Shown piece by piece: positions 1,445-37,097 of a DNA stretch of 37,097 nt; position 1 is the stretch's first letter, and every line of letters starts with the position of its first letter. The DNA lies in the IMG/VR virus record IMGVR_UViG_2563366877_000001; one strand, 5' to 3'. This DNA comes from a virus. Its lineage: Duplodnaviria; Heunggongvirae; Uroviricota; Caudoviricetes. The translations under genes and the position numbers were made by a program. The notes under the pieces were generated by a model that was not told the origin of the DNA, ran no database searches, and saw only the letters and a program-made list of their open reading frames with translations.

Positions 1445-1458
1445 TTTAAATCAATAAG

Positions 1459-2622
1459 TTACACATCATTAGTACCTTCCTTATTTTTTGACTGGGACAA
1501 ATTTGGGACCGATGGGTTCAGGATCGAGTCTATTTGCCGTGCGTGTTCGGTAAGGTGATTAGGTGCAAGGTGAGCATATCGACGAACCATTTCGATAGAC
1601 TCCCAGCCTCCCATTTCCTGTAACACTGACAACGGGACTCCGGCTTGAACCAGCCAACTTGCCCAGGTGTGTCTCAAGTCGTGAAATCTGAAATCATCAA
1701 TACCAGCCCGTCTCAGAGCCGCTTTCCAGGCTGTGTTTGCGTCATACCGCATCTTCCTTACTGTTGGCGCTTTCGTTCCGTCTGGTTTGGTACAGCTTTC
1801 CTTGTACACAAATACCCAACGGTGATGATTACCGATTTGTTTTTTCAATACGCGACATGCAGTATCATTCAGCGCAACGCCAATTGCGCGGTTTGATTTA
1901 CTCTCTTCCGGGTTTATCCATGCCACCCGGCGCTGCATATCTATTTGTTGCCATTCAAGGTTGATGATGTTCGAGCGTCTTAAGCCTGTTGCCAGTGCAA
2001 ATTCAACAACAGACTTTAATGGCTCCGGACATTCATCAATCAGCCTTTGTGCTTCATGGGGCTCCAGCCAGCGGATCCGTTTATTCTTTGGTTGAGGCAC
2101 TTTAATAATTGGTGCCTTATCGAGCATTTTCCATTCACGCTCTGCGGCTCTTAGCAGGGCCTTTATAAATGAAAGATGCGTAGCCTTCGTTGCAACGGAC
2201 GCTGGTTTTGGCGTGTATTCTGGAACAGGTTTCCCTTTTTTTCTGCATGCTTCTGCCCTGAGTTTCCAGTTTTCCTCATGACGCCGGTTCGTCATTTTCT
2301 GCATTGCTGAATAAATTTTTGATTCAGTAATGTCTCTTAGTTGCATTCCTGCGAAATGTTGAAGCCAGAATCCGATCCGGCTTTTGTCATCGTCCAGTGA
2401 TTTCTTATGTGCTTTCTCTTCGAGCCACCTGACACACGCTTCCTCAAACGTCATATCAGGTATTTCACCAAGTTTGCTGACCCGCCATGCTTCAGCCTTT
2501 AGCTTGTCATGGAGCTCTGTCGCCTGCCTTTTGTCCTTTGTTCCAAGAGACTGTTTAAATCTTTTACCGTTCGGCAATGTGAAACTGGCGTACCATATTT
2601 CACTTCTGCGGAAGAGTGACAT
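1459..2622 (-). CDS. int: phage integrase, tyrosine recombinase (P22 Int-like)
   Basis: 387-aa ORF immediately next to the tRNA; C-terminal HDLRHT...Y motif of tyrosine recombinases; recognised as P22-type Int. Confidence 0.93.
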
Positions 2623-2849
2623 TTTCTTTCCTCTGTTATGCCATCACCCGCGCTCACCTTGATAGTATGCAGCGGAGACTGAAGCGCCGCAATGCAGGCT
2701 TGTCGCGTTGTGAGGTAAGGAGATTTTGGTTTAGTGGGGTCTTTGCGTGTTGCCTGTAGGCGGCCTGTTCGTATCCAGTTGGTGGCGGTTGGTCTGGATA
2801 TCTTAAGAAACTGACAGGCCTCATCGAGTGTGAGGCTGTATGATTCCAT
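2499..2849 (-). CDS. xis: excisionase
   Basis: 116-aa product from internal ATG at 2849 with GAGGT Shine-Dalgarno 5 nt upstream; overlaps the int 5' end as in P22; sequence [31 protein letters not shown] resembles P22 Xis. Confidence 0.8.
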
Positions 2850-3099
2850 GGTTACCTCTGCTTTTTGAACGCATGTCACGTAACTTCTTAATGTGTTCTG
2901 CCGTTTCGATCTCTTCTGCTATCCGATCTGCATCAGCTTTATTCACAGGTTCAAAGTCATGATTAAAGCGGAACATGCTGGCGATACATGTTCTGCCTTT
3001 TCGGATGTAGTGAACTTTGTTGTGGGTAGAACGCAGGATTTTGCAGGGAGTGCCGTGGTGGTCGACGTACCAGGTGTTAGGCAAAATGATTCTGAACAT
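2821..3099 (-). CDS. hypothetical early protein
   Basis: 92-aa ORF in the leftward early operon; no recognisable family. Confidence 0.5.
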   Translation of the reverse strand: MFRIILPNTWYVDHHGTPCKILRSTHNKVHYIRKGRTCIASMFRFNHDFEPVNKADADRIAEEIETAEHIKKLRDMRSKSRGNHGIIQPHTR

Positions 3100-3146
3100 T
3101 TTTACACCTCAGTTGGACGATGTTGAAATTTGCTGCTTTGAGGCCA

Positions 3147-3365
3147 TCACAATCCCCATTGTTTGTTCTTAAGTTCGATCTCCTCCTGGCAACTTGCACA
3201 AGTCCGACAACCCTGAACGGCCAGGCGTCTTCGTTCATCTATGGGATCGCCACACTCACAACAATGAGTGGCAGATATAACCTGGTGGTTCAGACGACGC
3301 ATTTTTATTGCTGTATTGCGCTGTAATTCTTCGATTTCTGATGCTGAATCAATGATGTCTGCCAT
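3147..3365 (-). CDS. TraR/DksA-family C4 zinc-finger protein
   Basis: 72 aa with CxxC...CxxC (CCECGDPIDERRR...CRTCASCQ) spacing typical of phage TraR-like zinc fingers. Confidence 0.7.
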   Translation of the reverse strand: MADIIDSASEIEELQRNTAIKMRRLNHQVISATHCCECGDPIDERRRLAVQGCRTCASCQEEIELKNKQWGL

Positions 3366-3463
3366 CTTCCATTAATCCCTGAATTGTTGGTTAATACGCT
3401 TGAGGGTGAATGCGAATAATAAAAAAGGAGCCTGTAGCTCCCTGATGATTTTGCTTTTCATGT

Positions 3464-34436: not shown

Positions 34437-34702
34437 TTTTTTAATATCGTATTTTGTTCCTCCAGACGGCGAACTTGCTTTTCCAGCTCGCGGATACGTT
34501 GCTGGTCTGGAGTAATGGGTGTGGCAGAGGGCGTAATACCCTGGCGCTCTCGCCTGAGCTGGCGTACCCAGCTCTCAAGCGTGGTTGAACCGACATTCAT
34601 CGCTTCACTGGCCTGTCGATATGAGTAGCCCTTATCAACAATCAGCTGTGCACATTCCAGCCTGAACTCAGGGGTGAAGGTTCGTTTGGTTTTCTTGTTC
34701 AT
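34391..34702 (-). CDS. IS3-family transposase OrfA
   Basis: HTH protein with leucine-zipper-like C-terminus; resembles IS911 OrfA (…[14 protein letters not shown]…); start at MNKKTKRTF. Confidence 0.85.
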
Positions 34703-35163
34703 TAAGTCACCTGTTTTGTGTTGTGGTGAGAATATCACCTTTCATCAGGTGGCCAAATTTAGTGTGCCACTACACGGTAAACGCACCTGCGCCAGCGCAC
34801 CGCTGGATCCGCTGACCCGCGCCGTGGTGATTTCCCTGTTTACCTGGCGACGGGCGGAGCCTGATGACAACGCCGACGTCCCGATGGGATGGTGGGGGGA
34901 TACCTGGCCTGCGGTACAGAATGACCGTTACGGCTCCCGACTGTGGCTGCTTCAGCGCAGCAAACTGACCAATCAGCTGGTGCAGACGGTAAGGGGGTAT
35001 ATCCGCGAATGCCTGCAATGGATGATTGATGACGGCGTGGTGTCCCGTATTGATCTGGATATCCGCCGCACCGGGATTAATGAACTGGGTAACAGTATCA
35101 CTCTCTGGCGTCGTGACGGACCGGTAATGATTTCTTTTGATGATCTGTGGAGTGCGATAACGC

Positions 35164-36222
35164 ATGGCGGACAGTGAATTTCAGCGCCCGACGCTGGCAG
35201 AAAATATCAGTATGCTCCGTAACGATTTATTCGCCAGGCTGGACGTCAGCGACACGCTCCGGCGCATGGATGAAGACGTGCGGGCAAAGGTGTATGCGGC
35301 GGCGCTGCATACGGTTTACGGTTACATCGATTATCTGGCAATGAACATGCTGCCTGACCTGTGCGATGAGTCCTGGCTGGCGCGACATGCTGCGATGAAA
35401 CGGTGTCCGCGCAAGGGGGCCACTGCTGCCAGCGGGTATATGCGCTGGGAAGGTGTCAGCGATGGCCTGAAGGTGACTGCCGGGAGTGTTATTCAGCGCG
35501 ATGACCTGGTTCAGTACACGGCAACTGCCGATGCAACCAGCTCCGGTGGTGTCCTGCGCGTGCCGATCGCCTGCTCAACTGCAGGCGCGGTCGGTAACGC
35601 TGACGATGGTACGGCATTAATCCTGGTCACGCCGGTGAATGGTCTGCCGTCTTCCGGTGTGACTGACACCCTGACAGGCGGATTTGATACAGAAGATCTG
35701 GAAACGTGGCGCGCCCGCGTCATTGAGCGGTATTACTGGACGCCGCAGGGCGGGGCTGACGGGGACTATGTCGTCTGGGCTAAAGAAGTGCCCGGCATTA
35801 CCCGCGCATGGACATACCGTCACTGGATGGGAACGGGAACTGTCGGTGTGATGATTGCCGGCAGTGACCTGATTAATCCCATTCCGGAAGAATCAACGGA
35901 AACGGCGGCAAGACAACACATTGAGCCACTGGCCCCGGTGGCAGGCTCTGATTTGTATGTGTTCAGGCCGGTGGCGCATACGGTGGATTTTCATATCCGC
36001 GTGACGCCGGACACACCGGAAATACGGGCTGCCATCACCGCCGAGTTGCGTTCGTTCCTGCTGCGTGATGGTTATCCGCAGGGAGAACTGAAGGTGTCAC
36101 GTATCAGTGAAGCGATTTCCGGTGCGAACGGGGAATATAGCCATCAGTTGCTTGCACCGGCGGACAATATCTCCATTGCAAAAAATGAGCTGGCAGTTCT
36201 GGGGACGATTTCATGGACGTGA
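35164..36222 (+). CDS. baseplate J-like protein (Mu gp47-like)
   Basis: 352 aa; position and size in baseplate cluster. Confidence 0.8.
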
Positions 36223-36797
36223 CAAACGATGATTATATCCGTCTGTTGTCGGCACTGTTGCCGCCCGGTCCGGCGTGGTCAGTCAGCGATCCGGCGATTG
36301 CCGGTGCAGCACCGTCATTAACCCGTGTTCATCAGCGTGCGGATGCCCTGATGCGGGAGCTGGATCCGCGCACCACCACCGAACTGATAAACCGCTGGGA
36401 GCGTCTGTGCGGCCTGCCGGATGAATGTATTCCCGCAGGGACACAGACCCTTCGCCAGCGTCAGCAACGGCTGGATGCGAAGGTTAACCTGGCGGGCGGC
36501 ATCAACGAGGATTTTTATCTTGCACAGCTTGCTGCCCTGGGCAGACCAGATGCCACCATCACGCGATACGACAAAAGCACCTTCACCTGCTCATCGGCCT
36601 GTACTGACGCGGTGAATGCGCCGGAATGGCGGTATTACTGGCAGGTCAACATGCCAGCTGCCACCAACACCACCTGGATGACATGTGGTGATCCCTGTGA
36701 TTCCGCACTGCGTATCTGGGGGGACACCGTTGTCGAGTGCGTGCTTAACAAACTCTGCCCGTCGCATACCTACGTAATTTTTAAATATCCGGAGTAA
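36213..36797 (+). CDS. tail protein (Mu gp48-like)
   Basis: 194 aa following the baseplate J gene. Confidence 0.7.
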
Positions 36798-36800
36798 TTC

Positions 36801-37097
36801 ATGCATCGTATAGACACGAAAACCGCGCAGAAGGATAAGTTCGGCGCGGGTAAGAACGGTTTTACCCGTGGTAACCCCCAGACAGGCACGCCTGCCACCG
36901 ATCTGGATGATGACTACTTTGACATGTTGCAGGAGGAGCTTTGCAGCGTTGTGGAGGCATCCGGTGCCAGCCTGGAGAAGGGGCGGCACGACCAGTTACT
37001 TACCGCACTTCGCGCGCTGCTGTTAAGCCGCAAGAATCCGTTTGGCGATATCAAATCGGATGGCACGGTGAAAACGGCTCTCGAAAACCTTGGTTTG
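36801..37097 (+). CDS. tail fiber protein, N-terminal part (runs off window end)
   Basis: Starts [26 protein letters not shown]..., the conserved N-terminus of enterobacterial prophage tail fibers; GGAG Shine-Dalgarno; no stop before window end. Confidence 0.8.

Follow-up and report, generated by a model that had tools for sequence, protein, structure and literature searches.

In each of the Shigella phages SfI, SfII, SfIV and SfV, a gtrABC cluster separates the tail fibre genes from attP (PMC3636060). SfI has been described as a mosaic in which an SfV/e14-like structural half is joined to a lambda-like early half; its cos overhang, TGCCCGCCCC, was determined by experiment, and a 46-bp att core has been published for SfI, SfII and SfV (PMC3636060). 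Together with e14 of Escherichia coli K-12 these phages form a group whose plan joins a head of the HK97 fold to a Mu-like contractile tail within a lambdoid gene order. Here we analyze a stretch of viral DNA of 37,097 nt, IMG/VR record IMGVR_UViG_2563366877_000001; "the window" refers to this entire stretch. Our reading, to which we assign a probability of about 0.85, is that the window contains the left ~36 kb of one temperate E. coli prophage, a member of the SfI/SfII/SfIV/SfV-e14 group. The complete prophage measures ~41 kb, a length that includes an insertion sequence (IS) and an estimated gap in the source assembly. It very probably follows the group plan, and it is an ordinary prophage of an already described kind, with an architecture published for SfI, SfII, SfIV and SfV.

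The window was compared gene by gene with the phages lambda, P22, HK97, Mu, SfII, SfV and SfI and with two K-12 regions, DLP12 and e14, using ARAGORN for tRNA genes, Rfam, Pfam, NCBIfam, PADLOC, tblastn, megablast and a six-frame map of open reading frames (ORFs). On this map the leftward early genes span 1459 to 8279 and a rightward series starts at 8384, running from regulation through replication, nin, Q, lysis, packaging and head to tail. Taken together, the ORF map, Pfam matches and identities give the lambdoid order of int/xis, recombination, immunity, replication, nin, Q, lysis, packaging, head and tail. The GC (guanine plus cytosine) content falls to 38-41% in three short segments, at ~7-8 kb, ~11-12 kb and ~15-16 kb.

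The window opens with proA (1..1254), which is complete and encodes a protein 100% identical to that of E. coli. Next comes the integration target thrW, a tRNA-Thr(CGT) gene on the plus strand (1369..1444; Rfam tRNA, 71.8 bits) and the sole tRNA gene that ARAGORN found in the window. The 46-bp 3' end of thrW, ATTCGTAATGCGAAGGTCGTAGGTTCGACTCCTATTATCGGCACCA (1399..1444, plus strand), forms the attL core and is identical to the published core of SfI, SfII and SfV. Exact matches to it were found in SfII (24835), SfV (20592), P22 (21293) and the attR sites of strain DAM (L001 40781) and the source scaffold (L034 17626). Homology to phage attP starts at 1399, inside the tRNA gene, so that the prophage start of 1445 given in a preliminary description of this DNA lies 46 nt too far right. 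The same description recognized that only the left attachment site is in the window, and the 46-bp sequence indeed occurs there just once, at 1399..1444. It also proposed looking for a repeat of the tRNA end downstream; an exact 46-bp attR is present in the source scaffold at L034 17626-17671, equivalent to window positions 42389-42434 and ~5.3 kb past the window end. Between attL and attR there is one copy each of the integrase, repressor, replication, lysis, packaging and structural modules.

Adjacent to attL, on the minus strand, lie int (1459..2622) and xis (2499..2849) of the P22/SfV type (1459..2849). Their assignment as P22-like in the preliminary description agrees with amino acid identities to P22 of 90% for Int and 89% for Xis, and the products are closer still to those of SfII (100% and 95%) and SfV (98% and 94%). 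Over the attP-int-xis interval (1399-2849) DNA identity is 97.7% to SfII and 97.2% to SfV. A P22/SfV-type tyrosine integrase recombined the phage at the 46-bp core identical to the thrW 3' end, thereby regenerating the tRNA gene.

The packaging genes (18213..20913, plus strand) have the order HNH endonuclease (18213..18563), cos, terS (18689..19183) and terL (19180..20913). The 10-nt overhang known from SfI is present exactly at 18629-18638, between the HNH gene and terS, and TerS and TerL are 98-99% identical to their SfII counterparts. Head and neck genes follow on the same strand (20925..26217), encoding YmfR, portal, an S78 prohead protease, the HK97-fold major capsid protein, a connector, head closure and neck proteins, and a tail terminator; these were assigned by Pfam and by identity to SfII, which is 94-100% at the protein level. 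Phage_portal, Peptidase_S78 and Phage_capsid matches occur in this order without a separate scaffold gene, as expected of an HK97-type head. The HK97-type HNH, terminase, portal, protease and capsid genes named in the preliminary description are thus all present, at a distant identity to HK97 itself of 25-36% (TerL 26%, portal gp3 32%, protease gp4 36%, capsid gp5 25%).

The contractile tail genes (26226..33516, plus strand) encode a DUF2635 protein, sheath, tube, chaperone, tape measure, a DNA_circ_N protein, a gp44-like hub, a gp45-like spike and the first 9 codons of a gp46-like protein (33488..33516). After an IS, the region continues (34775..37097, plus strand) with the 3' remnant of the gp46-like gene (to 35177), a gp47-like baseplate J gene (35164..36222), a gp48/ymfQ-like gene (36213..36797) and the first 99 codons of a tail fibre gene (36801..37097), which is truncated by the window end at 37097; the Pfam families GP46, Baseplate_J and Phage_Mu_Gp48 and the translation support these assignments. 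Tail proteins have 98-100% amino acid identity to SfII and 30-43% identity to Mu gp38, L, N, P and gp45-48, which they match in Mu order. Both the Pfam families and the identity to Mu are those of a Mu-like contractile tail in which gp46 is interrupted. The chaperone gene has a T-TTT-TTC slippery heptamer at 28483..28489, 10 nt upstream of its stop codon, and a -1 ORF extending to 28650. The contractile tail with a frameshift chaperone and circularization protein foreseen in the preliminary description is therefore borne out. Likeness to Mu ends with the tail: no window DNA aligns to Mu, the tblastn matches are to tail genes only, and no homologue of Mu early genes, including transposition genes A and B, was detected in the window by tblastn. 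Integration is site-specific at thrW, and the prophage does not belong to Muvirus.

Among single characterized phages, SfI (NC_027339) is the closest relative, collinear over 66% of the prophage part at 95-98% DNA identity. The stretches they share run from att through int, xis and DUF4222 to TraR, from DUF1317 through exo and bet to gam, from the C-terminus of O through P to ren, and from HNH and cos through terminase and head to tail. SfI alone has lambda immunity (cI, rexAB, N, cII), a lambda-type nin region, another Q, two tRNA genes, a DLP12-type holin and gtrA/gtrB/gtrI beside attP, whereas in the window the immunity region is of the cI/YdaS/YdaT type, the nin block is that of DLP12, DUF3800 and VasI-like morons are present, an IS interrupts gp46 and gtr genes are absent.

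SfII (NC_021857) is the top match for the late region, which is collinear with it over 18576-37097 with the IS as the sole break; identity is 98.9% over 18576-33517 and 97.3% over 34774-37097 (SfII 14950-17273), and the alignment spans SfII 13-17273 in total. Portal, protease, capsid and Int of SfII are 100% identical to those of the window. SfII covers 58% of the prophage part; its early, regulatory and lysis DNA is unrelated to the window except for part of the lysozyme gene, and it has gtrABC(II) and an acyltransferase that the window lacks. SfV (NC_003444) shares the att core and gene order, with 97.2% DNA identity in int/xis, 97.8% in tail genes and matching terS and terL, yet differs in portal, protease and capsid (25-28% amino acid identity), in its early region and in its gtrV cargo. 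The resemblance to SfV-like thrW phages suggested by the preliminary description is stronger than supposed there, at 97-99% DNA identity and collinear with SfII. Lambda, P22 and HK97 align at the DNA level to 15%, 5% and 2.6% of the prophage part.

Even closer relatives were found in complete E. coli genomes. Prophages of strains DAM (NZ_CM129523.1) and UID2309220003 (NZ_CM142671.1) cover 89-92% of the prophage part at 97-98% identity and occupy the same proA-thrW site. Both are bounded by attL and attR and have the same pin-invertible tail-fibre end, and neither has the IS in gp46. DAM is without DUF3800 and encodes a NACHT-domain protein at the position of the VasI-like gene; UID2309220003 carries emrE/ybcK and Avs2 cargo. 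Coverage of at least 80% was reached by 88 of 5426 complete E. coli genomes for window 1-12000 and by 73 for 12101-37097. Looking up the gp48 protein also returned 10 other prophages, located at dusA, ssrA and other sites.

The e14 element of K-12 is ~96.7% identical to the window in DNA over two intervals, 19777-21514 (3' end of terL, ymfR, 5' end of portal) and 35435-37097 (3' end of gp47, ymfQ, 5' end of the fibre gene). Its pseudogenes beeE and jayE correspond to the 5' end of portal and the 3' end of gp47, and the interval between portal and gp47 is lost; on these alignments, e14 is best described as a deletion remnant of the same structural module. Its pinE is 92.9% identical to the pin gene downstream of the window in the source genome, and its type IV restriction gene mcrA sits where the source has PD-T4-3. 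It differs in being located at icd with a different integrase.

The elements listed in the preliminary description are all present at the positions given there, and these comparisons bear on the mosaic of phage lineages that it proposed, which was to be weighed against close collinearity with a single lineage. SfI and SfII each cover only part of the prophage, as given above, and immunity, nin, Q and holin come from elsewhere, as expected of a mosaic. This part of the proposal holds for the early region, which is shuffled. It does not hold for the combination of a P22-type integrase, an HK97-type head and a Mu-type tail: since the same att core, cos overhang and mosaic plan are described for SfI, the SfI/SfII/SfV/e14 group has this combination as its fixed and published architecture, and it is not a fresh mosaic. 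Judged from the alignments, recent shuffling is limited to the early region.

Leftward from xis, the early region begins with accessory genes assigned by Pfam (2821..4474, minus strand), which encode a DUF4222 protein, TraR/DksA, a 71-aa hypothetical protein, a Dam methyltransferase (3756..4313) and a DUF1317 protein. The DNA of 3170-3759 is 97.3% identical to lambda, and the Dam methyltransferase matches the PADLOC orphan methyltransferase model (7e-33). Lambda Red genes exo, bet and gam and a KilR-type cell-division inhibitor gene (6293..6499) occupy 4465..6499 on the same strand, with Pfam matches to YqaJ, RecT, Gam and KilR. DNA identity to lambda is 96.7% over 4311-6302, and amino acid identity is 98% for Exo, 99% for Bet and 98% for Gam. 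Between these genes and the repressor, 6500-7590 contains a small lipoprotein gene and ~480 nt without gene assignment (6500-6980). The lipoprotein gene (6980..7360, minus strand) adjoins the repressor gene and is probably a moron; its translation has a lipobox-like LAGC N-terminus and a weak BamE/SmpA-like match (Pfam BamE, 1.6e-4) that is below the curated cutoff.

The immunity region (7590..9223) encodes a cI-type repressor with helix-turn-helix and S24 peptidase domains (7590..8279, minus strand), a Cro/YdaS-like protein (8384..8614, plus strand) and a YdaT-domain protein (8684..9223, plus strand), all from Pfam. This region is not lambda-like, and the repressor is 42% identical to SfII CI. 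The replication genes O (9220..10239), P (10236..10937) and a truncated ren (10934..11107) follow on the plus strand (9220..11107), with Phage_rep_O and Phage_lambda_P matches in Pfam and identity to lambda. Five palindromic iterons, TTACCyGAAwsAGGTAA, lie within O at 9661..9773 and are followed by an A/T-rich stretch, which is the arrangement of a lambdoid O/P origin. P is 98% identical to its lambda counterpart and O is 66% identical overall, with lambda-like DNA resuming at 9773, right after the iterons and at the start of the A/T-rich stretch. The gene thus reads as a hybrid that joins its own iterons to a lambda-type O C-terminus. Lambdoid O genes are commonly jointed between an iteron-specific N-terminal part and a C-terminal part, and the O of the window looks like the usual joint of this kind.

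Further to the right, a nin block with ylcH, ybcN, ninE, ybcO, rusA and ylcG (12609..14197, plus strand) is 98.4% identical in DNA to K-12 DLP12, which agrees with the DLP12-like origin given for ybcO, rusA and ylcG in the preliminary description. It is followed by the gene of late antiterminator Q (14193..14882, plus strand; Pfam Phage_antiter_Q, 6e-94). The lysis region (16136..17687; Pfam) comprises a LydA-type holin gene (16136..16441), lambda-type R, Rz and Rz1, and bor/iss (17394..17687, minus strand), whose products are 95%, 99%, 98% and 87% identical to those of lambda. For the genes called lambda-type in the preliminary description (exo/bet/gam, O/P, R/Rz/Rz1 and bor), identities to lambda accordingly range from 87% to 99%, except for O. 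The immunity genes (cI, YdaS-like cro, YdaT-domain), the DLP12 nin block, Q and the LydA-type holin gene are unlike those of SfI, SfII or SfV and match E. coli lambdoid siphoviruses, among them PhiR47_2, IdasGreatGrand and 4A7, at ~95-96%.

In the standard lambdoid cycle, RecA-stimulated self-cleavage of the S24 repressor would start early transcription. This would be followed by O/P replication, Q-dependent late transcription and HNH-assisted cleavage of cos at TGCCCGCCCC.

The sole break in the structural genes is an IS3-family IS of 1258 bp (33517..34774, minus strand), recognized by its inverted repeats, target duplication and NCBIfam matches. It has imperfect TG...CA terminal inverted repeats, 77% complementary across 30 nt, and is flanked by a CGG target duplication at 33514-16 and 34775-77. 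The transposase genes orfA and orfB are on the minus strand (NCBIfam transpos_IS3, 8.8e-80; Pfam HTH_Tnp_1 and rve), and the element is 99.9% identical to copies elsewhere in E. coli. NCBIfam gives the IS3 family alone and no specific IS name; IS911 was considered and rejected, since megablast gave no match to the IS911 copy in SfII. A full-length Rfam match to isrC (RF01387, 150 bits, 34584-34706, minus strand) lies inside orfA and was taken to be IS-derived, not a small RNA gene of the prophage. By inserting after codon 9, the IS divides the Mu gp46-like baseplate wedge gene; it is missing at this site in SfI, SfII, SfV and strain DAM. In a large gene-position collection the gp46::IS junction is carried by just two assemblies, which points to a recent insertion, and among species-representative genome contigs, which do not include the source, there was no exact match to the junction. 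Neither the IS nor two morons discussed below nor the position of the window end at a scaffold gap had been noticed in the preliminary description.

Because the IS splits this baseplate gene, functional tails are probably not assembled and the prophage is probably tail-defective. It can probably still excise, replicate and lyse the cell.

The alternative that survives best is that the prophage is fully functional, tolerating the IS by means of an internal gp46 start or read-out transcription from the IS and producing infectious SfI-like particles. In its favor, the remaining structural ORFs keep their SfII lengths (100% coverage) and the late genes are without further lesion; the 3' part of gp46 is in frame with starts in or beside the IS, and the gene caller of the collection predicted a 137-aa product. 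The candidate starts, however, are not preceded by a Shine-Dalgarno-like sequence, and a 1258-bp element with transposase in the opposite orientation within the late operon is likely to exert polarity on gp46, gp47, gp48 and the fibre genes. Mu gp46 and its counterparts, T4 gp25 and P2 W, are conserved core components of the baseplate, which also speaks against a functional prophage. We consider full function unlikely and retain the reading of a probably tail-defective prophage. In other E. coli prophages with this tail module, frameshifts were seen in the gp46, sheath or gp44 genes of several, and independent decay of the module appears common.

Several points weigh against our account of a tail-defective prophage on the group plan. 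Defectiveness is something we infer from the insertion, and the in-frame GTG start at 34764 would give a 137-aa gp46 remnant short of only ~10 native N-terminal residues; if this remnant is expressed, tails might still assemble. In the early region, tblastn against lambda, P22 and HK97 and Pfam searches revealed no homologue of an N-type antiterminator in 6500-7590, and none is recognized between kil and cI to account for early-left antitermination. In the 104-bp intergenic region of the divergent cI-cro pair, operators were not convincingly identified; the region yielded only two 15-nt direct repeats. Finally, a gap of 1770 Ns in the source scaffold conceals the distal tail-fibre region of the source.

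This gap also determines where the window ends. The source scaffold, KB732530.1 of assembly GCA_000351165.1, is 100% identical to window 1254-21748; the same scaffold was recovered through the gp46 remnant, and it extends 8 kb past the window. The window ends at 37097 because the gap (L034 12337-14106) starts there, 2 nt further on and inside the tail fibre gene. The assembly probably broke at the pin-invertible tail-fibre repeats, leaving this gap. Cargo follows the gap up to attR (L034 14183-17671 of the source DNA), in the form of genes for a pin invertase, a GIY-YIG protein and a YdeO/AppY-like regulator of the AraC type, and then an rve fragment. Over its full length the GIY-YIG gene matches PD-T4-3 (2.4e-140), characterized as CMoRE, a type IV restriction enzyme against 5hmC-modified DNA (PMC12923530). 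The slot between pin and attR holds Avs2, GmrSD, EcoRII or an acyltransferase in relatives, McrA in K-12 e14 and gtrABC in the Shigella phages.

The preliminary description had allowed for gtr-type cargo beyond the tail fibre gene, and the consistent position of gtrABC in SfI, SfII, SfIV and SfV, together with an Acyl_transf_3 gene in the same slot of one relative (L033), would favor a true serotype-converting phage with gtr or oac genes past the window or hidden in the gap. Seven tblastn queries (GtrA, GtrB, GtrII, GtrV, GtrI, P22 GtrC and the SfII acyltransferase; E ≤ 1e-3) gave no match in the window or in two complete relatives, nor in the 8 kb by which the source DNA extends past the window, with the 1770-N gap remaining; pin, PD-T4-3 and the AraC-type regulator are found there instead. 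The gap flanks are collinear with strain DAM, whose corresponding 1514 bp hold only invertible-segment tail-fibre and assembly genes, while gtrABC needs ~2.5-3 kb. A serotype-converting phage is therefore highly improbable, and with no gtrABC or oac found between the tail fibres and attP the prophage is predicted not to be serotype-converting.

Just past attR (L034 17672-20414) there is an island with CbtA/CbeA toxin-antitoxin, DUF987, RadC, antirestriction, DUF905 and YfjT genes. The island, arranged in tandem with the prophage, constitutes a second element associated with thrW and presumably resembles CP4-6 at thrW in K-12.

It is scarcely credible that the window instead combines two adjacent or nested elements, a lambda-like cryptic prophage and an e14/SfV-like tail remnant: the early half matches lambdoid siphoviruses, PhiR47_2 and 4A7 among them, at 95-96% and the late half matches myoviruses, prophages with lambda-type Nu1/A terminases encode an identical VasI-like protein and thrW bears the second island past attR, but exactly one attL/attR pair brackets the unit in both the source and DAM, its modules are single-copy and in canonical lambdoid order, more than 70 complete genomes carry the same composite, and its composite plan is also that of SfI, a phage isolated as viable particles (PMC3636060).

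Within the single prophage that we favor, the DUF3800 and VasI-like genes are two window-specific morons. The VasI-like protein (11254..11748, plus strand; 164 aa; Pfam VasI, 5.3e-6) has a hydrophobic, signal-peptide-like N-terminus. Its gene replaces the 3' end of ren in a segment of 40% GC, and segment 11179-12608 was found in none of the reference phages. Downstream of the gene are ~850 nt without a convincing ORF. Identical VasI-like proteins occur in thousands of assemblies, in lambdoid prophages with differing structural modules.

The DUF3800 protein (15104..15907, minus strand; 267 aa; 38% GC) is a defence candidate supported by matches to Pfam DUF3800 (5.4e-11) and PADLOC PDC-M04A (3.7e-35). 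A literature search found no paper mentioning PDC-M04. The gene occupies the post-tR' Q-holin slot, adjoined by a terminator-like hairpin at 15082-15103 and a promoter-like site. In Stx phages the stx genes occupy the Q-holin slot. One tentative possibility, which we regard as doubtful, is that the DUF3800 protein acts as a single-gene anti-phage defence moron and, more broadly, that the Q-holin and pin-attR slots of SfV/e14-like prophages are exchangeable sites for defence cargo. DUF3800 genes elsewhere have been suggested to work with flanking RNA (PMC5737381), and the gene in the window may likewise act with an unrecognized flanking RNA. A permissive-threshold Rfam scan of 14927-16090 gave no DUF3800-associated or other RNA family, and folding of the 216-nt flank 15908-16123, with z = -0.89 for the minus and z = -2.56 for the plus strand, was too weak to claim a structured RNA. 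As a resident, the prophage would provide its host with cargo functions that include Bor/Iss, the DUF3800 defence candidate and PD-T4-3.

The prophage adds little new biology, being a textbook case of lambdoid mosaicism, and a suitable annotation would be SfI/SfII-like, non-serotype-converting, probably defective prophage. Its IS insertion offers a clean example of prophage domestication. Of modest interest is the defence-cargo slot pattern: in E. coli, the SfV/e14-type myovirus backbone carries defence cargo (PD-T4-3, Avs2, GmrSD, EcoRII, McrA) where the Shigella phages hold O-antigen modification genes.

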